This document shows positions 17,906 to 52,947 of a stretch of DNA of 64,000 nt, piece after piece. This DNA is from Eledone cirrhosa (taxonomy: Eukaryota). The notes under the pieces were generated by a model that was not told where the DNA came from, searched no databases, and saw nothing but the letters and a program-made list of their open reading frames with translations. The DNA lies in the NCBI GenBank assembly GCA_964016885.1, contig OZ024741.1, forward strand, positions 86,490,001 to 86,554,000, given 5' to 3'. Each line of letters starts with the position of its first letter. Position 1 is the stretch's first letter. A program made the position numbers and the translations under genes.

Positions 17906-20900
17906 TCATCATCATCATCATCACCGTTTTACGTCCGTTCTTCCACGCTAGCATGGGCTAGACGGGTTGTCCTGTTGTGGGCAGTGTCTGGTTGGTTGAC
18001 CATGCCTTGCTCATACAGGAACTGATTTGGTTTGATTTCTACAGCTGGATGCCCTTCCTAACACCAACCTCATTTACAGTGAGTGCCGGGTGCTTTTTCG
18101 TGGCGCCTACACGTTCACTTTACAGTGTGGGCTGGGTGCTTTTTTGCCGTGGCATCTCCATGACCACTTTACAGTGGGAGGGGGTGGGGGCATATTGTCT
18201 ATATGCTTCAGCTTGTACCCATGGGAGGTCGGGTACTCTGTATTACTGCGTGACACCAGAGGTCACGGTCGTGTGTCATCGACTTGGAGAGGTGTAATTG
18301 GGTAAGGTCGCCTTTTATCACCTCATCCCAGGTCATCTTGGGTCTCCCCACTCCGCAGTTTCCATTGACTTCTAGTGCTCTGCACCTTTTTATGCAGCTG
18401 TCATCCTTCATACGCATCACATGTCCATACCAACGCAACCGCCTCTCCTGCACACAGCATTTGATTCCTCTTATGCTCAGTCTCTCTCTCAATTCATTTA
18501 TGCTTTGTCGTTCACGTATATTACTGTTACACATCCATCGGAGCATGCAGGCTTCGTTTCTCTCTAATCTACGTAAGTCTTCCACCTTCAGCGCCCAGGT
18601 CTCACTACCATGTAACATTGCTGTTCGGATACACGCATCATACAGTCTGCATTTTCATTTTGAGGGAGAAGCCTTTTGCAGCTAGCAGTGGTAGTAGTTC
18701 CCTGAACTTCTTCCATCCCGTTCTTACCCTAGTTATTGTACTTTCTGAACACCCACCTCCGCTGCTAATTCGGTCACCTAGGTAGCAGAAGCTGTCTACT
18801 GTCTCTACAGAGCCCGCCCAGAGATTGGTGGTACTTGTTTCCTGTGGCTGTTTGCTGCTTGCTGTCCCAGTACAGCTGCTGCATGTGAAGCCTACATTCT
18901 TAATTAAGCTTCCTGAGATCCCGCTACATCTCTTGTGTACCCATTGTTTGCATTTGGGACAGAAAATGGAGTTCCTACCTACACCTTTCCTACATACTGA
19001 GCAAGGCCATTTCCCTGAGGGGATCTGGGTTCTGTTTTCTCGTCTACTTACAAGGACCTTAGTCTTTGTCATGTTGACTTTGAGACTCTTTCTTTCTAGT
19101 CCCTGCTTCCAAGTTTGGAATTTCTTCTCTAGTTCTACCATAGATTCAGCTATAAGTGCGAGGTCATCAGCATACAGGAGTTCCCATGGGCATCCGGTCT
19201 TAAACTCCTCTGTTATTGCCTGCAGGACTATGATGAACAGGAGAGGGCTAAGAACAGAGCCCTGCTGGACCCCAACCTGTACGCTAAATTCCTCGCTATA
19301 TTCATTGCTAATCTTAACTTTGCTGACTGCTCCCCTATACATGGCTTGTACAGCTTTCACAAGCCATTCATCTACTCCTAGTTTTCTAAGAGCCCACCAG
19401 ATTACAGCACGTGGAACTCTGTCAAAGGCTTTCTCGAGATCGACGAATGCCAGGTAGAGTGGCTTACTTTTAGCTAGGTACTTTTGCTATGACACCTAGT
19501 ATTACCTGGTTAACAATACGTGTGGTTATAGTGTGACCTACAGACCCAGATGCCTTCAGCATCTTGGCAGCTATACCCGATGGACCGGTTGCCTTCCCCA
19601 TCTTCATATCTTTGATTGCCTTACTTACTACGCTGCTGCTGACTTGTACTGCTGGCCCCTCTATAGGGTCTACTTGGGGTAGGGTCTCTTCTTCCCATGC
19701 ATTCTCCTCATTTAGTAATCTATCATAATGACTTTTCCATGCATCTTTCTTCTCAGCACTTGTGAGGGCAAGCTCACCTTTATCATTCCGGATACACTTC
19801 TCTCCAATGACATCACAATTCTCTCTGACATACTGCCTCGCAATCTTGAACACCTCCTGTTTCTGGTCCTCACGTTGCAAAACATGCTTGAATTTTCTAT
19901 CCTCTGCTTCCCTCCTAGCTAAGTATACTTGTCGCCTAGCTTCCCTCTTGGTCTCTATGTAATGTACCCTGCTCCCTTCGTTCTTCCATTCTTTCCATGC
20001 CTGTCTCTTGGCCTTAACTGCCTCATCTACCTTATTGTTCCACCACCAAGTCACTCTCCTCCTGCTTGTGGTCTTACTCCAGCCACAGACCTCATCTGTC
20101 GCCTCTAGTAAGTTATTTTTTAGGAACTCCCAGTGTTCTTCTACATTGAATGTCTCTATCTGTTCTTCTTTACTGTCGTAGGCGTTGAGTAAAATATCTT
20201 TAAATCTGTTACTGGCTGAGGGGTCTTTCAGCTTCCAGATCTTTCTTCTCCAGGTTGGCCTCTGTTTCCAGGTTCGTCTAGTTCTGACTGTGAGGTCGCT
20301 GACAACTAAGCTATGTTGGGAGGTACATTCCTCACTAGGGAAGGCTTTTGTGTTTACGACCGTCCATCTGTCACGTCCTCTGATGAGGATAAAATCTATC
20401 TGACTAGAATGCTCCCCTGATCTATAGGTGATCAGGTGGTTGTCGGGTCTTTTGAAGTTTGTGTTACATATCGACATGTCATTGGCGTCGCAGAATTCTA
20501 GAAGTCTGAATCCTTCTTCATTTCTTGTGCCAACCCCATGGCCTCCATAGAAACCATCACGGTGTTTACCTACGTGTCCGTTAAAATCTCCTGCGATGAT
20601 TAGGAAGTCATTGTCGTTTGTTAGAGCAGTAGTGTGCATTAGGGACTCATAAAATCTATCCTTAAGTTCGTCTGGCAACCCCGATTGGGGTGCGTAAGCT
20701 GATATTATTGTGGTAATTGTTTTATTCAGGACTAGTCTGAGTTTAATGATTCTTGCATTCACCCTGTTTACTGAGATTACTTTATCAACCCATTTGTCAG
20801 CTAACAGTATACTTACACCACCCATCCCATCGTCATTTCCCACCCAGAAAAATTTGGAGCACTGACTTTTTCCTACAAAGACTCTAGCAGACTCTCCTCT

Positions 20901-21265
20901 CCATCTAGTCTCTTGCACACAGCATACATCAATTTCCTTTCGCTCTAGCATTTCTACGATTTCTCCTGCTCTTCCTTTCATTGTGCTTACATTGATGGTA
21001 CTAACTCAGAGTTTTGGGCATTTGTCGACACTCGTAGGGAAGGGTCGATTTTTGCAGGTGTGTGTGTGTGTTTCCTCTCTCTGGATTGGGGCTTCACATG
21101 GGTGCTTGGTAGCTTGCGGATTCATATTCATTTCATGTATTAATTCAGAGTTGCTCCAATTTATTCTCAGCTCATCCATACATAACGGTAGGAAAATTTC
21201 AGGGCTAGAAGAACAGTGGTGGTGGTAATAATGGCAGGGTGTGTTGGGCTGGGACGGGGGAGGAG
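17906..21265 (-). mobile_element. Near full-length RTE LINE (APE endonuclease + RT), subfamily 1
   Basis: ORFs 19470-20981 (VQETRW, AYAPQ, GDFNGH), 18638-19360 (QGSVLSP, YADD) and 18208-18618; (GAT)n tail; ~0.2 kb deletion near 19490 relative to the copy at 49-52 kb. Confidence 0.95.
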
Positions 21266-22638
21266 AGAGTTATGTGTGTGTGTGTCATTATCCAAGATAC
21301 ATTACCATAGGTGAGGGTTGGTATGACTACCGAATTGAAGAAAGCGAGTTTGGCTTTTACACCTACCTCCCTTCTACAGATTACCAAATGCTGAAGCTGA
21401 CGCATTACTGCACCAGCACCTGCAATTCTTGCAAATATGCATTTGCAATGTGTATTTATGTGGAGGCAGAGTGTGTATGTGTGTAAATCATCTTCAAAAC
21501 TATCCCTTTTCACTCCCCCAGAGTCACCACCATGCTAAATATCCTGAATCACTTCAAACCAACAAAGTCAGAGTCCTGACAATGTCCCTTCCATTATACT
21601 CAAATAACAAACCCTAGAGCTAAACCTATACTCACCAATTCATCAATTCCTCTCTTTCTTTCTACAATGATTGATCTTAAACTTTAGAAACACACTCCTG
21701 TGTGTCACATTCCCAATAAGGGCAATACCATATACCTTGACAACTCACTTCCAGCATCACTTCTCCAGCATCTAGAATTCCTCTTCCCCCCCTTAACTCT
21801 TAATATCCTATACCACGTGAAATCACATTAGCAAGGCAATCTTGAAAAATATAAAACAGCATTATGACTTCATTACATTAAACATTAAGGCCTTTATTCT
21901 AATACTGCAAATAATTTACACAACAATCTGTCCACTAAAAAAGATACTATAAGCATTTTGATTAACAAAAATGTATTTAGATATTTTCTGCTAAATCATT
22001 GTATGCATATATGAACCCATAACATCTGGTGGAGTCATAAAAGCAGAGTAGTGACATACAGTGTTTCTTGAGCATTGTAAATCTGGTGGAGCCCATCTCT
22101 CTTCAGGTCTAAACACAGCTGATTTCTTTCAGAGAAAGAGAGAGGATGAATAGATATAGAGAAGAATTGACCCCAAGACTAGACTGGTACTTTTTTTATC
22201 AACTTTGAAAAGATGAAAGGCAAAGCTGACCTCAGTGGGATTTTAACTCAGAGCACAGAGAGCCACATGAAATGCCACAAAGCATTTTATCTGATGTTCT
22301 AATGACTCTACCAAATCACTACCTCTGTTAAATGATTACAGGATGTTAAGAATTAATTACCACCAGCAGAGCTTTTGTAAAACTAGATTTGCTGGAAACC
22401 TCTCATATATTACTCGCAAGCTTTTCAAGAAATTTGGTGAGAACAATGTTGATAACCTTGAGATTAGCAAAGCAGTCACATGAATCTCCTGATGAAACAG
22501 CTTGCCTCAGTGTTCCATATGTTTCTCATCTCTTGGATCAGAAAATTTCTCTTAACTCTTTAGCATTTACATTTCTCTATATACACGAATGTATTTTTGT
22601 GGTAAAGGCTTTATCTTACACAATTATCTCATATAATA

Positions 22639-23783
22639 TAAAGGTCCTTGTAAGTAGACGAGAAAACAGAACCCAGATCCCCTCAGGGAAATGGCCTTGC
22701 TCAGTATGTAGGAAAGGTGTAGGTAGGAATTCCATTCTCTGCCCCAAATGCAAACAATGGGTACACAAGAGATGTAACGGGATCTCAGGAAGCTTAATTA
22801 AGAATGTAGGCTTCACATGCAGCAGCTGTGCTGAGACAGCAAGCAGCAAACAGCCACAGGAAACGAGTACCACCAATCTCTGGGAGGGCTCTGTAGAAGC
22901 AGTAGACAGCTTCTGCTACCTAGGTGACCGAATTAGCAGCGGAGGTGGGTGTTCAGAAAGTACAATAACTAGGGTAAGAACAGGATGGAAGAAATTCAGG
23001 GAACTACTGCCACTGCTAGCTGCAAAAGGCTTCTCCCTCAAAATGAAAGGCAGACTGTATGATGCGTGTATACGAACAGCAATGTTACATGGTAGTGAGA
23101 CCTGGATGCTGAAGGTGGAAGACTTATGTAGATTAGAAAGAAACGAAGCCTGCATGCTCCGATGGATGTGTAATAGTAATATACGCGAACGACAAAGTAT
23201 AAATGAATTGAGAGAGAGACTGAGCATAAGAGGAATCAAATGCTGTGTGCAGGAGAGGCGGTTGCGTTGGTATGGACATGTGATGCGTATGAAGGATGAC
23301 AGCTCCATAAAAAGGTGCAGAGCACTAGAAGTCAATGGAAACCGCGGAGTCGGGAGACCCAAAAAGACCTGGGATGAGGTGATAAAAGCCGACCTTACCC
23401 AATTACACCTCTCAAAGGCGATGACACATGACCGTGACCTCTGGCGTCACGCAGTAATACAGAGTGCCCGACCTCACATGGGTACAAGCTGAAGCATATA
23501 GACAATATGCCCCCACACCCTCCCACTGCAAGGTGGTCGTGGAGGTGCCACGGCAAAAAAGCACCCAGCCCACACTGTAAAGTGGACGTGTAGGCGCCAC
23601 GGAAAAAAGCACCCAGCACTCACTGTAAATGAGGTTGGTGTTAGGAAGGGCATCCAGCTGTAGAAATCAAGCCAAAATCAGTTCCTGTATGAGCAAGGCA
23701 TGGTCAGCTGACCAGACACTGCCCACAACAGGACAACCCGTCTAACCCATTCTAGCGTAAAACGATGATGATGATGATGATGA
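22639..23783 (+). mobile_element. 5'-truncated RTE LINE, subfamily 1
   Basis: Open frame KVLVSRRENR...ARPHMGTS, then 3' UTR and (GAT)n tail; nearly identical to 17906-19060 in inverted orientation. Confidence 0.95.
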
Positions 23784-23825
23784 ATATCGAATCTATGAGA
23801 TTTTGATGTTATTTATTTTGAGAAC

Positions 23826-26800
23826 TGTGGGTATGGTGTGGTGTGCGGTGGCCGGAAGCTGGGGAGTGCTCGACCGGAAGAGTGCTCGACTGGAAGAGTG
23901 CTCGACCGGAAGAGTGCTCGACCGGAAGGGCCAGCAGGTCGGCCTCTCTCTAGCGGTGATCAAACGTGGTGGACGCGAGTTTGGCAGCTCCCGGTGTTAA
24001 TAAGTTGGATCATACACACATGGAAGAGGAAAAACCAGCCATGGGATTTACCGGCGCCTATGAAAAGCAGTAAGTGAGATAGCTTTTTCTAACCACAAGC
24101 TATTTCGGCACTGGAAACTGAGATCTGATAGAAGAAAAAAAAAAATTTAAAAAAATAATAAACTTTCTCGAAAACAAAGCTACTGGAAAAACAGAGAGGA
24201 GTCTGTTGTTTTTTTTTTATTACTTAGCGCAATACAAATTAGGATGGCGATGAGACTACAAACGAGCAAAGCAATTAGGGCATTTTCCGGTGAAGGCGAT
24301 GTTGTCGCTTGGCTGCGAAAAGTCCGGCTGGTCGCAAGCTTACAGAAGTTTGAAGATGTGGTGGCACTGTACCTCGAGGGGGACGCGTTGGTTCGCTTCC
24401 TTGAAATGGATGAACACAGCCAAAGGGATGCGCAAAAGATCGAGAGGCACATGATGGAAGCGTTCGTGGAGGGACCATTAGCCGCTTTTGCTAAGCTGGC
24501 AAGAATTAGATGGAACGGTGAATGCGTTGACATTTTCGCAGCGGAAATACGGCGACTGGCCATGTTGGCTGGATATCAGGCGGAATGTGAATGCATGGTG
24601 CGGTTGGCGTTCATAAATGGATTTCCAGACGACATAGCGGTGAAACTGCAGCAAATCCCGGGTTACAAAGAAATGGAGATGCGTGCACTGGTGGAGCAAG
24701 CCCGCATCATGGCAGAAGATGCCAAGAAGAGTGTCGCGGCGATGGCAACTACAGAGGCCTAGGACAGTTGGCAGCAAAATGGTGAAAGGGAGGCAACCAC
24801 GGCACGCGGTCGCCCGCGAACGTTTAGAGGTCGCTGTTTTATGTGCCAGGGCCCGCACATGGCGAGAGACTGTAGAGAATCAAGGCCAGAAATAATATGC
24901 TACCGGTGTAAGCGACCAGGCCACATTGCTACTAACTGCGACCAGGGAAATGATCCAAGGGGAACTACTGCGCCGGTAGTTGCCCCTTACGAGTAGAGGC
25001 GCTGCCTGTGGTGGAAGTCTTCGTGAGGGGAAAGCCACAGCGAGCCCTCGTGGACACGGGCTGTACGACGACACTGGTGACCGCGGGAGTGGCGCAGAGG
25101 TGAAGAGGGAAGGGCAGCGTAAGGGCACGCGACGGTAGGAAAATTGAATGCAGCGAGGTGGAGATGGCGGTACGGAGAAGGAAAATAAGGCTTTCTGCCA
25201 TCGTAGTCGACAACGCGGTGGGTGGGATCGGCGTGGTTATGGGCATGGACGCAATTGGCCGTCTAGGAGGCGTCACAGTGAACAACGTCGGTGTGTTGTT
25301 TGGCGGCGCCGCATCGGTATGTGCGGTGAGTACGCGACAGGAGAACCAGAAGGCCCACGAGGAGAAATACCCCGCTGACACTGTGCAGGACAAAGACTTC
25401 AAGGCCGTGTTCGATGGGCAGCGATGGGTTGTTGAGTGGTATTGGAAGGGAGAACCACCAACACTGAAGACCAAAGTGGGCTGCTATCAACATACATTGA
25501 AGGGAGACATTAGGAGCGAATTCGAGTGAGAGGTAGAGAGATGGATTGAGGAGGGCATACTGCTTCCCTGGAAAGAGGAGGTGAAGTGCGGAGTATTGCC
25601 ATTAATGGCGGTGGCGCAATCCATGAAGAACAAGGTGAGGCCGGTACTGGACTTTCGGGAGCTGAACGAGCACGTGTCATGTCACACGGGTGGCGAGGTC
25701 ACGGATGTCTGTGGGGAAACCCTGCGTGAGTGGAGACGCATGGCGGGGGGGTTCCGCAATCGTAGATCTAAAGTCGGCATATTTGCAATTGCATATAGAT
25801 GAAAAGCTCTGGCAGTATCAGCTGGTCAGGTATAAGGGCCGAACATATTGCCTGACCAGGCTCAGTTTCGGGCTGAGCTCCGCACCGAAGATCATGGCGG
25901 CGGTCCTCAAGACCATTCTGGGAAAGGCCAACAAGATGAAGAGGGCCACTAATTGCTACATTGACGACATCCTAGTGGACGAGTCTGTAGTGTCGGAGGC
26001 AGAGGTCACGAGCCATTTACAGGGGTATGGACTGGCTGCGAAGCCGTCAGAAGCGTTGGAGGGAGGAGCTGCGCTGGGACTTAGGCTACGGCGAGACAGG
26101 ACGGGTGTCTTAGTATTCCAGAGGGGAAATGAAGTTCCAGAACTGGGCCTAAGTATGAGTAGGCGGGACTTTTCTCGGGGTGTAGAAAGTTAGTGGGTCA
26201 CTACCCAATTGCTGGGTGGCTCTGGACGGTATGCAGCTATGTCAAGAGACGAGCGAGAGGAGTGACTTGGAGTGACAGAGTGGGAGAGAGGACGGTGGCC
26301 ATGATACAGGAGATCGTATCATGCCAGCAGCATAGCGCCGGGTGTCACGTTGGAGATAGGAGGTGCTGAGGTCGAGGATGCAGCCTGGCTTAGGAAGGAC
26401 GACTGCAACCCCATCAATGTGGCCGAGCTGGACGTGGTGTTGAGAGGGGTGAACCTCGCCCTGAGGTGGGGACTGCGCACCATCGAGATAAGCACGGACT
26501 CGGCTACTGTACTCGGATGGGTGAGATCAGTGCTCACCAGTGAGAAGAGAGTGCGAACGAGAGGGGCGGCTGAGATGCTGATAAAGCGCCGCCTGGGAAC
26601 TTTAGGAGAGCTGGCCACCGAGTTTGACCTGAGGCTGAGCGTAGTTTTCGTGCCCTCAGAGAAAAATAGGGTGGACGTCTTAACCAGGGTGAAGAAAGCC
26701 TGGATGGAAGCGCCGGAGGAGGTAGAGGAGGAGATAGCTGCCGTGTGTCGGCTGACCGAGTCGGATCTGAAAGGGTTGCATGACATGCACCACATGGGAG

Positions 26801-27954
26801 TGGATAGGACTCTGATCCTAGCCAGGAGAATCGACTCGGACGTTGACATGCACAGTATTCAAAGAGTGGTTAGAGGCTGCGTCCGATGTCAGTCCATTGA
26901 TCCCGCCCGGGTGTGCACGAAACGGGAAGCCTCTCGGTGGATCGCGACTGGAAGCGATTGGTGGTGGATGTAACACACTACCGACAGGGAACGTACCTCT
27001 CGATGGTCGACTGTGGACCGGGACGGATAGCGATATGGAGGGAGATGAAGAATGGAACGGCCGAGGAAATCATGCGGACGTTGAGAGAGGTGTTCTTGGA
27101 GCAGGGACCTGTGGACGAACTGCTGATGGACAACAGTGCAGCATTCCGCTCGGAGGCGCTTAGGGAGATGCTCGATGGATGGAAGGTGGACCGTTTCTTC
27201 AGAGCCAGCGTACAGGCCGAGTGGAAATGGAATTGTGGTGCGACACCACCGGACGATCAAAGCAATGGCAAAGCGGGGCCACATCTCACCAATGGAGGCA
27301 GTGTTCTGGTACAACATGTCCCCTCGGGTGGGACAGGTTGAGGAATCGGTGCCACACAGAGCAGTATTCAGATACGAGTGGCGGCACCCGTGCACACCAC
27401 CACAGCGGCCAGTGGGGAGAGAGAATGCATTCGTGCAGGTGGGCAAAGAAGTCTGGGTTAAGCCCCCAGATGCACATTGCACATCTCAATGGGGAAGGGG
27501 AACGGTGACGGCCGTAAATTCCCAGAACAATGTGTCCGTGGACGGGGTACCACCTCATGTCCTGGACGTCCGTAGAATTACTGTGTCAACGGACTCCGAG
27601 GAAGAGGAAACCCAAAGTGCCGCCCCAACACTGCGGAGATCACAAAGAAGTCGCAAACCACCAACCTGGACAGCAGACTTTCATATGCAGAAGGACGAGG
27701 GGGAAATTGATCCTTGAGATCAGGGCGGCGTGTGGGTATGGTGTGGTGTGCGGTGGCCGGAAGCTGGGGAGTGTTCGACCGGAAGGGCCAGCAGGTCGGC
27801 CTCTCTCTAGCGGTGATCAAATGTGGTGGACGCAAGTTTGGCAGCTCCCGGTGTTAATAAGTTGGATCGTACGCATGTGGAAGAGGAGAAACCAACCATG
27901 GGATTTAGCGGCGCCTATGAAAAGCGGTAAGTGAGATAGCTTTTTCTAACCACA
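23826..27954 (+). mobile_element. Gypsy/Ty3-type LTR retrotransposon, complete but frameshifted
   Basis: LTRs 23826-24097 and 27731-27954 (TGTGG...CCACA), 5-bp TSD AGAAC. Gag with two CCHC knuckles, protease LVDTGC, RT YIDD, RNase H, then integrase (HHCC; VDVTH, DNSAAF) in Gypsy order. Confidence 0.95.
24945..24988 (+). promoter_or_regulatory. -1 ribosomal frameshift signal (gag-pol)
   Basis: In-phase slippery heptamer G GGA AAT followed after a short spacer by stem-loop AAGGGGAACTAC-tgcgccg-GTAGTTGCCCCTT. The -1 frame leads into the protease. Confidence 0.75.
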
Positions 27955-29249
27955 AGAACAATACCTTAACATCAGTATGAGCAGCCAGTTACAGACCGGT
28001 TTGAACAGAAAGAGGTGAGAGAATTCTGACTTGATACAGCTGGTTTAAATGCTGAAGGGTTAAACTGTATGAATATATCATTTACTGATGGAACTCTCTT
28101 TGATCTACACTTTATCAATTTGGAGATGTTGCAGTGTTCAGTTTTGTCCTTTACATCTTCATATATTAACAACCTATGAGCCGTCTTTTCCACTAACACC
28201 ATTTCTATGTATATGATATCACCCTTCATTTCTCCTTAATCTTCTTTACCCATTTATTCCTGAGAGGTTCGTGGAGGTAGAGTCCTGAAATACTCCTTCC
28301 AGCGGGTTCTGTCAGAAGCAACCGTCTCCAACTGATCAGACTGGATCCCCAAGTGAGACCAGTCAAGCTCATGGATGTTATCCAACACTCTTGCTCGGGG
28401 TCTACTCCTGGGTCTCCTGCCGGTTGGTTTTGCCTGTAAAATCTGTCCAGCAATTCATTCCTGAGACATTCTAACCACATGCCCATAGTATCAGAGCTGT
28501 GATCACTCAATTCAGAGAAGTAGTGGCTTTAACTGGAGTGACTATCTGACCTCCGAGCTATGCACTATCAAGTAACGTTACTCAAAAGATGCTTTGGAGG
28601 AACCCCATTTTGGCCGCTTATATTCTTTTGATCATTATCCTAGATACATTACTATAGGCGAGGGTTGGTATGACTACCGAATTGAAGAAAGCGAGTTTGA
28701 CTTTTACACCTACCTCCCTTCTACAGATTACCAAGTGCTGAAGCTGACGCATTACTGCACCAGCACCTGCAATTCTTGCACTTAATTCAGCTTCCTGCCT
28801 TCCATCACTCGAGATACTTGAACTTCTTCACCTGCTTCAGTGGAATTTCATTCACATATAAAACGCATTGCACAGGCATCCTTGAGAGAACAAGTGTTTC
28901 AGTTTTTGCAGCACTGATTTTCATTCCAGCCATGCAGCACTCAGCATCAAACCTATCAAGTGCAAGTCATAGATCACTTTCTGTGGAGATAAGTAACACC
29001 ATGTCGTCTGAAATTCCAACCGACTGATTTTACACCTGCCAGTCTTGATACCACTTCCAACCCGTCTGTGCATGTCAATCCTGTTCATGAAAATAATGAA
29101 CAGAAGAGGTGACAGTACACACCCTTGGTGAAGTCTGACTCCCACATTGAATGGTTTTGATTTAGCACCAATCCTCCGAACACAAATACTCAGGCATTTG
29201 TATAAGAGACATTTGGGCAACAAGAAGCTGACCATCGATCCCATAATCT

Positions 29250-36630: not shown

Positions 36631-39037
36631 AAATAGGTTAGGAAGAGAGTTCAGAGGGTGTGTGGAAATACATTTAGAAAAAAAGGGGAAGAACAAATAA
36701 AAATAAAAATAAACGTAAAAATAAGCATTAGAATATATATATGGATGTATGAGTGAAAAAAAATGTATTGCATATAAATTACTGACTATAAAACAGGTCA
36801 GTTCTGTGCTGTGGTAAGTGTCTGTCTGGTAGCACTGATTCTGTACATACATATGGTATTTAACACACATTAAAAGCATAATTAGTCTCTCTAGGACACT
36901 CATATTTCATCACAGCTTGCTTAACACTATTTAAGCGGTGAGGAAAATGAATAGGTTTCAGGGAAAGACAAGATAATTATTATGAAAAGTAGAAACAATT
37001 ATTTGGAGATAAAACATTTTTCAATATTTATATCTTCAGTATATTTCAATCAGTTTGATCTCGTCATTAGATGCCTTATTCCTGGATATATTTGGTTATT
37101 TTGTATTGCAATTAATGAACAATGGTGTTGTTATTTTATAGATTTCCAACAAGCCAATCACAAGGGAATGTATGTGAAATTTGGTGCAGAACAAATATCA
37201 TAATGGACCTCATTCAAAAAGCAGCATTTTGTCAGGCTATTTCAATGTTTATATCCTCCATTCATACATTTCAGCAAAAAAGATACACATGCACATATAT
37301 AAGTCAGGAAAAGTCTATATATTTATGTCTATGTTTGTATATAAATGCATATGCAATTGCATCTATCATTGTAAATTTGGATTGATATCTCTATATCTAT
37401 CACTGAACAGATATTACAGGCAAAACGAACTGACAGGAGATCCAGAAGTAGATCCCGAGTAAGATAGTTGGATAACACACATGAGCTTGGCTGGTCTTGC
37501 TTGGGTCCAGCCAGATCAATTGGAGATGGTTGTTTATGACATGACCCGCTGGAAGGAGTGTTTGAGGACTCTTTCCCCATGACCCTCCTAGGAATATATG
37601 GTGGAAGAAGTATCTATATATCTATCTACTTGCTTGCCTGTCTGTATGTATATCTATCTATCTATCAGTAGCAATATATATGTGTGTGTATCTATCTGTT
37701 TATGTATATATATGCATATACACACTAATTATACGCTATAAAAATAAGACGTGTTTATATATTAATATATATCTGTCACATATGTATCGCAATCATCATC
37801 ATTGACTACTTTCCCTACTAGCAAGTGTTGGACAGCTCATCAGAGTCCAAGTCAGTACCTAATCAATGCTACTGACCTCTCAGACAGGTTAGGGGCTGCA
37901 ACTCACATCCATTTCCTCACTTTACAGAGTGCAATAGGTACATGTTATTGTTGCACCAGAAATAAGAAAGTTTTCTTGTCTTTGACACAAATAAAGAATC
38001 TTTTTGACTCTTTATTTGGTAAGTCTCTACAGGTGGATGCCCTTCCTAATGCCAACCCCTTTACAGGGTGTTCTAGGTTCATTTTTCATGGCACCAGCAC
38101 TAGAGAGGTTGTCGGTCATCCATTCAACTGAAGAGCCCTCTCTACCTCATAGGTAGATGATGACCTGTCTCAGGTGGGACATGTTTAGGGGAAGAGAAGA
38201 GAAGTAAGATAGATGATAAGTATGATGTCAAGGATGAGTGACAATAAGGCAGTAGGAAGGGAAGATGCCAAGTATAGTGTCATGATTTAACAGTGATGTG
38301 AATGAGAAAGATGTGTGAGGGTGATCCTGGATAGAATGGAGAGTGGGCAGTACAATGATGGTGAGAATGGATACTAGGGAGCTGTGGTGAAGGGAGGCAT
38401 GAATGGGTCACATCACATTCACACACCAGCCCACACTGTAAAGTGGTCATGTAGGTTTCCTGACAAGAAGCACCCAACACACACTGTAAAGTGGTTGTGT
38501 AGGCGTCACATCAAAAAGCACCCAGTACACACTGTAAACGTGGTTAGCATGAGGAAGGGCATTTAGCTATATAAACCAAGCCATAATCAGTTCTGCGTGA
38601 GCAAGACATGGTCATCTGACCTGGCCTATCTCACAATGAGACAATTCGTTCAACCCTTGCTAGCATGGAAAAATGGATGTTAAATGATGATGATGATGAC
38701 ATTTTATGGGGCTAGAGTGCCAGAAGTGCAGGGGTGGTCTTACTGGAAACAAGGAGCCAGTGACATCACATCAGCAGTGCAAGCTGTCTTTCTGTCTCTC
38801 TGCCTCTCTCAGTCTATAGCAACATTAAGTGCAGACATCATTATTCATGGTTGGTGTCAATGAGTGTGTGAAATTTGCTATGTTCTCTGGCCTGATATGA
38901 AACAGGTGAACATCGTGCTGAAGGATGCAATCCAGACATGTGGAGATGCAAAGGTAGGTTCCTTCGCTTCTTACAATAAGCAATTTTGCCACCGCTTGTT
39001 TTTTTGTATTATTTACTTTCCCCATCCTCGCAGACAA

Positions 39038-39991
39038 TCATCATCACCGTTTTACGTCCGTTCTTCCACGCTAGCATGGGTTAGACGGGTTGTCCTGTTG
39101 TGGGCAGTGTCTGGTCGGCTGACCATGCCTTGCTCATACAGGAACTGATTTGGCTGGATTTCTACAGCTGGATGCCCTTCCTAACACCAACCTCATTTAC
39201 AGTGAGTGCTGGGTGCTTTTTCGTGGTGCCTACACATCCACTTTACAGTGTGGGCTGGGTGCTTTTTTGCCGTGGCACCTCCACGACCACCTTGCGGGGG
39301 GGGGGGGGGGGGGGGGAGCATATTGTCTATATGCTTCAGCTTCGGCTTGTACCCATGGGAGGGCGGGTACTCTGTATTACTGCGTGACGCCAGAGGTCAC
39401 GGTCGTGTGTCATTGCCTTTGAGAGGTGTAATTGGGTAAGGTCGGCTTTTATCACCTCATCCCAGGTCATCTTGGGTCTCCCCACTCCGCGGTTTCCATC
39501 GACTTCTAGTGCTCTGCACCTTTTTATGCAGCTGTCATCCTTCATACGCATCACATGTCCATACCAGCACAACCGCCTCTCCTACACACAGCATTTGATT
39601 CCTCTTATGCTCGGTCTCTCTCTCAATTCATTTACGCTTTGTCGTTCACGTATATTACTGTTACACATCCATTGGAGCATGCAGGCTTCGTTTCTCTCTA
39701 ATCTACGTAAGTCTTCCACCTTCAGCGCCCAGGTCTCACTACCATGCAACATCGCTGTTCAGATACACGCATCATACAGTCTGCCTTTCATTCTGAGGGA
39801 GAAGCCTTTTGCAGCTAGCAGTGGTAGTAGTTCCCCAAACTTCTTCCATCCCGTTCTTACCCTAGTTATTGTACTTTCTGAACACCCACCTCCGCTGCTA
39901 ATTCGGTCACCTAGGTAGCAGAAGCTGTCTACTGTTTCTACAGAGCCCTCCCAGAGATTGGTGGTACTTGTTTCCTGTGGCTGTTTGCTGC
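39038..39991 (-). mobile_element. 5'-truncated RTE LINE, subfamily 1
   Basis: Near-identical to 17906-18860. Confidence 0.93.
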
Positions 39992-39994
39992 CCC

Positions 39995-40760
39995 AATATG
40001 GCAATGAAAATAATAGTAGGTAGCAATGCAGTCCAAGCCTTCATGGCGAGGGAAATGTTATTGCCTGGAATAGAAAGATACAATTGCTTGCTACACTGCA
40101 AGGCATTGAAAAATGTGGCTGGCTTTAGGACACTTGATGGCAACGCGCTAGCATTTTACCTTGAAATGGACCAGGCAGACCAATTGAATGTGGAGAAGAT
40201 AGAGCAGCACCTTAAGGAAGTGTTCACTGAGGGATCTTGTGCTGCTTTTGCCAAGCTAGGCAAAGTGAGCTGGATGGGAGAGCAGGTGGAAGTGTTCACA
40301 GCGGAAATCCAGAGGTTGGCTACACTAGCCAAATTCACAGGAGAGAATCTAGAAAGAGTCGTGCAGATGGCATTCATGAACGATTTCTCTGATGAAATTT
40401 TGGTGAGGCTCCAACAGTTGCTGGGCAACAACAAAATGGCTATGAGTGAGCTAATTACACAGGCCCGCATAGAGGAGTTAGCAATGATGAAATCTCATAG
40501 TAGTCAACAGCGATCAATGATCAACGAGAGGATATGAACCCTCATGAATGCTCCGCCGCGTGCATTCAAAGGCCAATGCTTCAGGTTGCAGGATCACAAC
40601 AAGGGACTGCAAGCAACTGTAGCCCGAAATAATTTACTACTGATGTAAGTGGGCAGGCCTCATTGCCAACAATTGCAGCCAGGGAAATGTTCAAAGGGGA
40701 GTTACTGTGCCAATAGCTACCCTCAAAAGCAAGTAGAGGCGCTCTTGCAGTTACTGGTGG
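39995..40760 (+). mobile_element. Diverged gag remnant of the same LTR lineage as 23826-27954
   Basis: LDGNALAFYLEMD...EVFTEGSCAAFAKL...EIQRLATLA aligns to the gag at 24244-24762; decayed knuckles and the GGGAAAT site are retained. Confidence 0.85.
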
Positions 40761-48959: not shown

Positions 48960-51900
48960 CTACCTTTCTTCTCTCCTTACCAGCCCCAACAAAGCCTTCC
49001 ATTATTACCACTACTGTCCTTCTAGCCCTGAATTCTCTTACCGTTATGTATGGATGAACTGAGGATAAATGGAGCAACCCCGAATTGATAAATAAATGAA
49101 CATGAATCCGCAAGTTACCAAGCACCCATGCAAAGCTTTAATTCAGAGACAGGAAGCATACACACACCCCTGCAAAAATTTACCTTTTTCCACGAATGTT
49201 GGCAAATGCCCAAAACTCTGAGTTGGAACCATCAATGTAAGCACAATGAAAGGAAGAGCAGGAGAAATCGTAGAGATGCTAGAGCGAAAGGAAATTGATG
49301 TATGCTGTGTGCAAGAGACTAGATGGAGAGGAGAGTCTGCTAGAGTCCTTGTAGGCAAAAGTCAGTGCTACAAATTTTTCTGGGTTGGAAATGACAATGG
49401 GATGGGTGGTGTAGGTATCCTACTAGCTGACAAATGGGTAGATAAGGTAATCTCAGTGAACAGGATGAATGCAAGAATCATTAAACTCAGACTAGTCCTG
49501 AATAAAACAATGACCACAATAATATCAGCTTACGCACCCCAATCTGGGTTGCCAGACGAACTTAAGGTTAGGTTTTACGAGTCCCTAATGCACACTACTG
49601 CTCTAACAAATGACAATGACTTCCTAATCATTGCAGGAGATTTTAACGGACACGTAGGTAAACACCATGATGGCTTCTATAGAGTCCATGGAGGCCATGG
49701 GTTTGGCACAAGAAATGAAGAAGGCTTCAGGCTTCTAGAATTCTGCGACGCTAATGACATGTCGATATGTAACACAAACTTCAACAAACCCGACAACCAC
49801 CTGATCACCTGATCAGGGTAGCATTCTAGTCAGATAGATTTTATCCTCATCAGAGGACGTGACAGATGGACGGTCGTAAACACAAAAGCCTTCCCAGGTG
49901 AGGAATGTACCTCCCAACATAACTTAGTTGTCAGTGACCTCATTGTCAAAACTAGACGAACTTGGAAACAGAGGCCAACCTGGAGAAGAAAGATCTGGGA
50001 GCTGAAAGAACCCTCAGCCAGTAACAGATTTAAAGATATTTTACTCGATGCCTACGACAGTAAAGAAGAACAGATAAAGACATTCAATGTAGATCACTGG
50101 GAGTTCCTAAAAAATAACTTACTAAAGGCGACGGATGAGATCTGTGGTTGGAGTAAGACCACAGGCTTAGGAGAGTGACTTGGTGGTGGAACAATAAGGT
50201 AGATGAGGCAGTTAAGGCTAAGAGACAGGCATGGAAAGAATGGAAGAACGGGGGAAGAAGGGTACGTTACAGAGAGACCAGAAGGGAAGCTAGGCGACAA
50301 GTATACTTTGCTAGAAGAGAAGCGGAGGATAGAAAATTCAAGCATGTCTTGCAACGTGAGGACCAGAAACAGGAGGTGTTCAAGATTGCAAGGCAGTGTG
50401 TCAGAGAGAATTGTGATGTCATTGGAGAGAAGTGTATCCGGAATGATAAAGGTGAGCTTGCCCTCACAAGTGCTGAGAAGAAAGATGTATGGAAGAGCCA
50501 TTATGAAAGATTACTAAATGAGGAGAATGCATGGGAAAAAGAAACCCTACCCCAAGTAGACCCTATAGAGGGGCTAGCAGTACAAGTCAACAGCAGCATA
50601 GTAACTAAGGCAATCAAAGATATGAAGACGGAGCAGGCATCCAGTCCATTGGGTATAGCTGCCGAGATGCTGAAGGCATCTGGGTTGGTAGGTCACACCA
50701 TAACCACATGTACTGTTAACCAGGTAATACTAGAAGGTGTCATACCAAAGGATTGGTGCAGCAGCATCATTGTCAACTGCTACAAGGGTAAAGATGATGC
50801 ACTAGAAAGAGGAAACTATAGAGGTATAAAGCTGATGGACCAGGTCATGAAAGTAACAGAAAGAGTTATAGCACAGTTGATTAGGGACCGGGTGAAAATA
50901 GATGAAATGCAATTTGGGTTTGTGCCAGGAAAAGGCACCACTGATGCCATCTTCCTTGTGAGGCAGTTACACGAAAAGTACCTAGCTAAAAGTAAGCCGC
51001 TCTACCTGGCATTCGTCAATCTGGAGAAAGCCTTTGACAGAGTTCCCCATGCTATAATCTGGTGGGCTCTTAGAAAACTAAGAGTAGATGAATAGCTTGG
51101 GAAAGCTGTACAAGCCATGTATAGGGGAGCAGTCAGCAAAGTTAGGATTAGCAATGACTATAGCGAGGAATTTAGCATACAGGTCGGTGTCCACCAGGGC
51201 TCTGTTCTTAGCCCTCTCCTGTTCATCATAGTTTTGCAGGCAATAACGGAGGAGTTTAAGACCGGATGCCCATGGGAACTCCTGTATGCAGATGATCTCG
51301 CACTTATAGCTGAATCTATGGTAGAACTAGAGAAGAAATTCCAAACATGGAAGCAGGGACTAGAAAGAAGGGGTCTCAAAGTCAACCTGACAAAGACTAA
51401 GGTCCTTGTAAGTAGACGAGAAAACAGAACCCAGATCCCCTCAGGGAAATGGCCTTGCTCAGTATGTAGGAAAGGTGTAGGTAGGAACTCCATTCTCTTC
51501 CCCAAATGCAAACAATGGGTACACAAGAGATGTAGTGGGATCTCAGGAAGCTTAATTAAGAATGTAGGCTTCACATGCAGCAGCTGCGCTGGGACAGCAA
51601 GCAGCAAACAGCCACAGGAAACAAGCACCACCAAACTCTGGGAGGGCTCTGTAGAAACAGTAGACAGCTTCTGCTACCTAAGTGACCGTATTAGCAGCGG
51701 AGGTGGGTGTTCGGAAAGTACAATAACTAGGGTATGAACGGAATGGAAGGAGTTCAGGGAGCTACTGCCACTGCTAGCTGCAAAAGGCTTTTCCCTCAAA
51801 ATGAAGGGCAGACTGTATGATGCGTGTATACGAACAGCAATGTTAGATACTAGTGAGACCTGGGCGCTGTCTGTGGAAGAAACGAAACCTGCATACTCCG

Positions 51901-52497
51901 ATGGATGTGTAATAGTAATATACGCGAACAGCAAAGCATAAACGAATTGAGAGAGAGACTGAGCATAAGAGGAATCAAATGCTGTGTGCAGGAGAGGAGG
52001 TTACGTTGGTATGGACATGTGATGCGTATGAAGGATGACAGCTGCATAAAAAGGTGCAGAGCACTAGAAGTCGATGGAAGCCGTGGAGTGGGGAGACCCA
52101 AGACCTGGGATGAGGTGATAAAAGCCGACCTTACCCAATTACACCTCTCAAAGGCGATGACACACGACCGTGACCTCTGTTTTCACGCAGTAATACAGAA
52201 GACCCCCCACAGGTACAAGTCGAAGCTAAAGCATATAGATAATATGCTCCCACCCCCTCCTACTGCAAAGTGGTCGTGGAGGTGCCACGGCAAAAAAGCA
52301 TCCAGCCCACACTGTAAATGAGGTTGGTGTTAGGAAGGGCACCCAGCTGTAGAAATCAAGTCAGAATCAGTTTCCGTATGAGCAAGACATGGTCAGCCGA
52401 CTGGCTACTGCCCACAACAGGACAACCCGTCTAACCCATGCTAGCATGGAAGAACGGACGTAAAACGGTGATGATGATGATGATGATGATGATGATG
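48960..52497 (+). mobile_element. Full-length RTE LINE, subfamily 1, several disabling mutations
   Basis: ORFs 49246-49812 (APE), 50175-51095, 51117-51737 (YADD) and 51905-52321; (GAT)n tail. Confidence 0.95.
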
Positions 52498-52947
52498 TAG
52501 AAAGAGCAACAACAACAAAAAAAAGAAAAACAAAACAATAACACAAATACAAATTTGTTAATTTTTTTAAAAATGTGATACAAAATTTTGCAACATTCAT
52601 TTTTAATTATATGGCAATTTCTTGATCATAACTTGTATTTTTTTATTTGTAAGGAAATACTGAGAGATGCTACAAGGAGAAATGTGTTCTGAAATGGTAA
52701 GACCTGACATTTAGCTGACTGCATTTTTATAGCTCTCAGTATAAGCCTGTTTTGTAATACCTCACAACTTAGTCTATGATACATAGTATATCGTCAATAA
52801 TGAAGCAAAATAAATTACTCTCTGTTCATTAAATACTAACTTTAGTTGTAACAAAATAAGTATTGTTACAATTTTATCACCTTCCTCTATTTTCATTTCT
52901 TTGTGAATAAATGGCACAAAGAAAATAGCAAGGGCTATTAGAGCACA

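Follow-up and report, generated by a model that had tools for sequence, protein, structure and literature searches.

The window, i.e. the whole 64,000-nucleotide stretch of Eledone cirrhosa DNA analysed here, carries a decayed LTR retrotransposon of 4.1 kb (23826-27954), in which the 12 nucleotides directly 3' of the 5' LTR were found to be exactly complementary to nt 1-12 of the host tRNA-Phe(GAA). It is quite probable that this site is the primer-binding site (PBS) for a 12-nt 5' piece of tRNA-Phe, which a cut in the D-stem between U12 and C13 would release. The first-pass annotation of this DNA had proposed that a 5' tRNA-Phe fragment of about 12 nt primes reverse transcription; the site, the match and its conservation stood up, and from them we infer the priming, the cut after U12 and the nuclease that would perform it.

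The window element and its 12-nt site

The element, whose features all lie on the forward strand, possesses the general marks of an LTR retrotransposon, namely a TG..CA LTR pair and a target-site duplication within the 4-6 bp range, and, when window copy and relatives are taken together, also the general content, i.e. gag, protease, RT, RNase H, integrase and polypurine tract. The 5' LTR (23826-24097, 272 nt, TG...CA) is a direct repeat of the 3' LTR (27731-27954, 224 nt, TG...CA), with 213 of 224 aligned columns identical if a 48-nt difference in repeat number is excluded; within the 5' LTR four 16-nt tandem units are found (23864-23928), of which the 3' LTR has one. The pair is flanked by identical copies of AGAAC, the left one at 23821-23825 and the right one at 27955-27959. 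Between the LTRs, gag (24244-24996) was recognised from its translation, which shows two CCHC knuckles and an internal stop at 24760-24762, and from zf-CCHC matches in relatives. It is followed by protease and the start of RT (24997-25665), a part interrupted by stops and frameshifts and assigned by a DTG motif and by protease Pfam matches in relatives, and by the RT core with its YIDD motif and the start of DUF7047 (25666-26190; RVT_1 E 2.8e-6, DUF7047 in relatives). Next come an RVT_3-type RNase H, the first part of which is absent in the window copy, together with the integrase zinc finger (26305-26970; RVT_3 E 8.5e-6, Integrase_H2C2 E 0.062), and a frameshifted integrase core and C-terminus (26971-27715), identified by sequence and by rve matches in relatives. 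A polypurine tract (27716-27730) adjoins the 3' LTR in a layout, GATC..GGGGG.G and then TG, that is common to other copies and distant relatives.

Two observations accompany this anatomy. A splice-donor-like GTAAGT lies about 25 nt before the LTR end (24070-24076) and recurs at the same place in a second family of the same genome, though the LTRs of both families are otherwise unrelated. Outside the element, LINE-like repeats with (GAT)n tails occupy 22350-23780, with inverted copies near 18000-21100, 39000-40000 and 49000-52500; one of their frames matches a PHD finger and another an endonuclease domain.

The site AGCTATTTCGGC (24098-24109) abuts the LTR end ...TAACCACA (24097) with no spacer. 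As the 3' LTR also ends ...TAACCACA and is then followed by the AGAAC duplication, the LTR end at 24097 is set without reference to the 12-mer, and the duplication bears out the first-pass reading of an LTR ending at this base, with the 12-mer directly after it and no TGG. The same annotation had cited a tRNA-Phe(GAA) 5' end that is complementary to the site at 12 of 12 positions, which proved correct for the host: the reverse complement of the site together with the tRNA continuation was found at 224 places in the host genome (anchored pattern; backward control 0), and at three of three loci checked ARAGORN places the beginning of tRNA-Phe(GAA) at exactly that base. When host tRNAs (Phe, Asn, Thr, Val, Ala and Asp) were compared, a long complement at +1 was given by Phe nt 1-12 only, the other five reaching at most 7 nt. 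Pairing ends at U12, with the A and C of the LTR opposite C13 and A14 of the tRNA. For one given tRNA 5' end at a fixed place, the chance of an exact 12-mer is 4^-12, or about 4e-6 assuming 60 tRNA species.

Both a TGG start and pairing with a tRNA CCA end, which mark the canonical site, are absent from the window element; +1 to +3 read AGC in 34 of 35 distinct junctions, across which no conserved TGG-type site was found. A TGG at +15 of the window copy was rejected as a site, being unconserved, as was a 7-nt match of +19 to +25 to tRNA nt 11-17, which is common to Thr tRNAs or unconserved. Extension of the pairing into the pre-tRNA leader was likewise discarded, as 15 host gene leaders end in CA and match no longer. 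With respect to the tRNA genes themselves, a long tandem array of units of about 1.26 kb was observed in the host genome from about 117.36 Mb of G000:C4 (L034-L045). Each unit comprises a tRNA-Phe and a tRNA-Asn gene, with T-stem changes in most Phe copies, and about 97 of the first 100 listed tRNA-Phe-pattern matches fall inside this array.

Conservation of the site among copies and distant relatives

The first-pass annotation had named loss of the 12-mer, or a TGG-type site, in other copies as an outcome that would speak against its reading, and neither outcome was observed. Among the best 30 DNA matches in the Eledone cirrhosa genome, the 12-mer is exact in 26, carries one change in 3 and is affected by a small junction deletion in 1, and the exact 21-nt junction pattern occurs 372+4 times in this genome (control 0), i.e. 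in at least 376 copies. A set of 60 own-genome loci was assembled, 56 of which were chosen by a DUF7047 match, hence independently of the motif, and 4 by the motif; with at most one mismatch, the site follows CA or CG in 55 of the 60 and in 51 of the 56 DUF7047-chosen loci. For structural delimitation, 23 elements were retained that have a TG start and a 5/5 duplication, the rest lacking an LTR pair or having miscalled ends, and 22 of the 23 carry the site at +1 (16 exact, 6 with one change). The sole exception, L328 (G000:C1 near 73.82 Mb), is a member of the second family, whose LTRs are unrelated and in which the 12-mer (0-2 changes) follows 12 of 30 LTR ends, the other 18 entering unrelated flank. 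As a side observation, the 3' LTR of L328 is 27 nt short and ends at an internal CA (AG is next in the full LTR), and its 5-bp duplication is perfect; therefore, integration used the shortened 3' LTR end.

Sequence beyond +12 varies between own-genome subfamilies, and four junctions that seemed aberrant were recognised to be merely a subfamily. In the internally deleted copy L376 (G000:C2 near 388.03 Mb), element sequence is broken exactly at +12, with a 6-nt microhomology, and the layout is 5' LTR, 12-nt site, RNase H sequence of about 100 nt in inverted orientation and the remainder of pol. This break would resemble a misdirected strong-stop jump, a single case that an ordinary microhomology deletion also explains.

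Beyond this genome, 80 metagenome loci were gathered by Pol similarity, 43 of which have a gag match, and CA+AGCTAT-NNN-GGC stands immediately before gag in 38 of these 43. The five remaining gag loci comprise one contig that begins inside gag, one that begins within the site, L115 and L119, which are one element that keeps the first nine site bases and then diverges from GGC, and the degenerate L145, in which no site was seen. L082 keeps AGCTAT and the final C, its acceptor-stem part being altered and departing from GGC. In four comparisons (L084, L113, L077 vs L078, L126 vs L140), the flanks confirmed the LTR ends. Across the 35 distinct junctions (32 foreign, 3 own), +1 to +6 and +10 to +12 are 97-100% fixed and positions from +13 onward reach at most 60%, figures that are partly circular, as the motif served to select the rows; the counts free of this circularity are 38/43 and 22/23. 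The edge of conservation coincides with the base that faces tRNA nt 1.

Opposite tRNA nt 4-6, 17 of the 35 junctions have the triplet TTC, 8 have CTA, 7 CGC, 2 CCC and 1 CAC. On a Pol tree of 47 rows (lineage members only, quick search, SH-aLRT support only), 6 changes were found for TTC and 4 for CGC, at least three of each being forced by branches at 95 or more; the eight CTA junctions form one clade and are to be counted once. The switches involve 2-3 bases at once; copying of the primer into the site would explain such multi-base switches, as selection could too. Runs in which one CTA element occurs bear the label annelid metagenome in 21 of 22 rows, and the viral contig L154 carries a tRNA-Phe(GAA) of eukaryote type with a 5' end that fits the CTA junctions. 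For the CGC, CCC and CAC types, 5' ends in viral contigs were found at 80 loci with 16 tRNAs (Thr 10, Ile 3, Phe 2, Arg 1), which without exception are bacterial- or phage-type; no relative of Pol was found in the viral contigs, and a search of the host genome for the variant tRNA 5' ends gave 2 matches, neither of them a tRNA. The occurrence of variant 5' ends on bacterial or phage-type Thr, Ile and Arg tRNAs would fit the assumption that a different host small RNA ending in the same 12-mer, or a non-Phe tRNA in the variant families, is the actual partner of the site. This assumption was judged very improbable, given that at least 224 tRNA-Phe-like loci in the host genome begin with the complement of the 12-mer and that variation between families is confined to tRNA positions 4-6, at which the tRNA-Phe genes of eukaryote type examined here also differ from one another. 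As an observation apart, L150-L152 are tandem copies of this animal-type element inside a bacterial genome record (Arenicella MAG), where they are probably host contamination.

Proposed priming mechanism and known systems

The proposed mechanism assumes that initially tRNA-Phe hybridises through its 5' strand with the element RNA, whereby the acceptor and D stems would open. The tRNA would then be cut after U12, leaving a 3'-OH at the LTR end, from which RT would extend the 12-nt piece into U5, so that the cDNA end would be flush with CA and trimming unneeded. Subsequently, plus-strand strong-stop DNA would copy the whole primer, halting at tRNA nt 1 where the template ends, and as a consequence the site could be rewritten to the tRNA of a new host upon host change. 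The site spans from the LTR end to tRNA nt 1 and therefore is as predicted for a fully paired 12-nt primer. Copying of the primer into the site was reported for retroviruses, not for Ty1 and Ty3 (PMC7472051), and in canonical priming the plus-strand stop is fixed by m1A58 (PMC13191261). The cut may be made by the element's own RNase H acting in trans, much as that of Tf1 acts in cis on its 11-nt primer, which it frees from an RNA-RNA duplex by cutting between bases 11 and 12 (PMC7175516); this enzyme is favoured over a host nuclease, with the chances about even. One Sulfolobus RNase HI was reported to cleave double-stranded RNA (PMC9719913).

Computed binding energies bear on what the primer is. 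According to the computation, the U5 hairpin is displaced by the 12-nt primer (net -10.3 kcal/mol), a 10-nt tRNA piece still binds (net -5.2 kcal/mol), and full-length tRNA-Phe binds weakly (net -4.1 kcal/mol). The second value would allow for a shorter primer from the same tRNA (nt 1-10 or 1-11), with AG as an overhang trimmed by integrase in a retrovirus-like manner, i.e. with the site 2-4 nt from the LTR, and ERV spacers usually are 2-4 nt (PMC7472051). However, AG is near-invariant and complementary to C11 and U12 of the tRNA, which would be a 1-in-16 coincidence, and the shorter primer is thus regarded as unlikely. The third value is compatible with intact tRNA-Phe, for which no cut is required, serving through its 5' strand as scaffold or packaging signal while synthesis starts from another 3'-OH (protein or freed tRNA 3' end). 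Such a role is very unlikely to account for the site, as pairing stops in every family exactly at the LTR end, the required place of the primer 3'-OH, no conserved TGG or second site was found nearby in the 35 junctions, and extra U5 pairing with tRNA nt 13-32 is not conserved (p<0.05 in 2 of 36 rows). A cofold of the window family had also suggested pairing of U5 with tRNA nt 15-28, a candidate that was dropped because it did not hold across families (p<0.05 in 2 of 36 rows; Wilcoxon p 0.43).

The priming RNA could also be that of the element itself, either as in Tf1 or through a U5-stem hairpin, with element RNA pairing with the site. The window family indeed has a 10-11-bp hairpin between the site and a U5 stretch that is private to it (24075-24085), and the first-pass annotation had pointed to this pairing; it is real in the window copy (11-bp stem, -14.6 kcal/mol) but does not go beyond shuffles (z -1.0) and, being confined to one family, stands outside the general mechanism. 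Across the 35 junctions, the longest complement within 300 nt upstream averages 5.1 nt, as do shuffles (5.1), and near the LTR end only the window family (window, L063) exceeds shuffles; self-priming is therefore unsupported. Furthermore, a transcript start at the U5 stem would yield strong-stop DNA of about 11 nt, and self-priming was considered extremely improbable.

Priming of copia minus-strand DNA by a cut 5' tRNA fragment was reportedly described by Kikuchi in 1986 (as cited in PMC7773854). The half-tRNA of copia and Ty5 is an initiator tRNA-Met fragment of about 39-40 nt, of which only the anticodon-stem end pairs. Like Drosophila copia and yeast Ty5 (Hemivirus type), the window lineage would use a cut tRNA 5' fragment; unlike them, it pairs tRNA-Phe nt 1-12 over the whole length and has RT before integrase, and its match is to tRNA-Phe nt 1-12, not to the anticodon-stem region of initiator tRNA-Met. 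Tf1/sushi (Schizosaccharomyces pombe Tf1) resembles the window lineage in that its primer is a short 5'-terminal RNA (11 nt), fully paired beside the LTR and released by RNase H (PMC7175516), but Tf1 cuts its own transcript in cis, while the partner of the window lineage is a host tRNA-Phe in trans, without self-complement; over the 35 junctions, complementarity between the site and the LTR sequence in which the transcript would begin did not exceed that of shuffles. Common with canonical 3'-CCA priming is the position of the site directly 3' of the 5' LTR, and IAP likewise uses tRNA-Phe(GAA) (PMC7472051); TGG sites, however, pair with the tRNA 3' end, whereas the window site is complementary to the other acceptor-stem strand. 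Fungal GalEa also has a lineage-wide non-TGG sequence abutting the LTR, a conserved hairpin replacing the PBS (PMC5445492), but, unlike the window lineage, it is copia-type, palindromic and self-pairing, without a tRNA match. Finally, Troyka elements are likewise LTR elements of marine animals; they have short LTRs, are arranged Gag-PR-RT-RH-IN and fall outside the typical gypsy clades (PMC12440569), and they differ from the window element (TG..CA, 5 bp) by CG..CG ends and 3-bp duplications; the main text of PMC12440569 mentions neither PBS nor tRNA.

Lineage and significance

Searches with the RNase H region identified relatives in Octopus, Argonauta and Aplysia as well as in four genera of crustaceans; a profile search added Trichuris suis and, in the sponge Sycon ciliatum, a sister group with a different integrase. 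Genomes with matches include Octopus bimaculoides, Argonauta hians, Aplysia californica, Petrolisthes, Oratosquilla and a clitellate annelid. This sister group (P0215, P0217, P0221, P0223 and P0231, one of them from Sycon ciliatum) has protease-RT-DUF7047-RNase H in common with the lineage; its integrase is longer and is not joined to the same stretch by the lineage profile, which suggests an integrase exchange. In all full Pol proteins scanned, DUF7047 lies between RT and RNase H. The lineage RNase H matches the RVT_3 and RNase_H models and, weakly, archaeal RNase HI models (best E 4.8e-5, far under model cut-offs), and for the gypsy RNase H models (RT_RNaseH, RT_RNaseH_2) 4 full Pol proteins showed no match at E 0.05 and 15 further proteins showed one, with E 0.019. 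The PR-RT-RH-IN order of Ty3/gypsy (Metaviridae) is present in the lineage Pol, and the marks of Ty1/copia (Pseudoviridae), i.e. integrase before RT and an RVT_2-type RT, are absent. Peptidase_A17, DUF1759 and DUF5641, the Pfam marks of BEL/Pao (Belpaoviridae), do not occur among the matches of the scanned proteins. By such domain and terminal marks, Pol is distinct from Troyka, copia and BEL. A structure model (pLDDT 79.5, pTM 0.54) confirmed the PR-RT-RH-IN folds; Foldseek matches at 10-20% identity gave no placement of the lineage, and its ESM Atlas neighbours are unnamed RT clusters only. The lineage profile reaches 1,376 protein clusters at E 1e-30, an upper bound, as strong matches can include neighbours.

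A full-text literature search found no report of such a PBS, with Repbase Reports, subscription journals and supplements, which may name families, lying outside its scope. The available text of PMC6238403 and PMC4402516 holds nothing on primer sites, and that of PMC3601003 treats hairpin and tRNA priming in general terms only. The site is read as a lineage-wide variant of tRNA-fragment priming, and there is a real chance that neither the lineage nor the cut belongs to a known kind. A wider reading, which is possible yet doubtful, would see here an animal-wide unrecognised superfamily (DUF7047, non-gypsy RNase H; sponges, molluscs, annelids, crustaceans, nematodes) that cuts captured tRNA-Phe after U12 with its own RNase H, rewrites the site per host and sidesteps silencing by 3' tRNA fragments, thus constituting a fourth mode of RT initiation.

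The site is not a one-off, as the lineage it marks is present in this genome in hundreds of copies. For genome annotation, the finding predicts that tools seeking TGG overlook or misplace such elements. It would give a concrete role to a 12-nt 5' tRNA fragment, a size below what most small-RNA libraries retain, and it opens the biochemical question of whether a tRNA-RNA duplex can be severed at a single bond by an RT-RNase H. Considering PMC7472051, escape of the primer site from 3'-tRF control would be predicted as well. If true, a new priming mode would stand beside the three described in reviews, i.e. priming by the tRNA 3' end, by half tRNA and self-priming.
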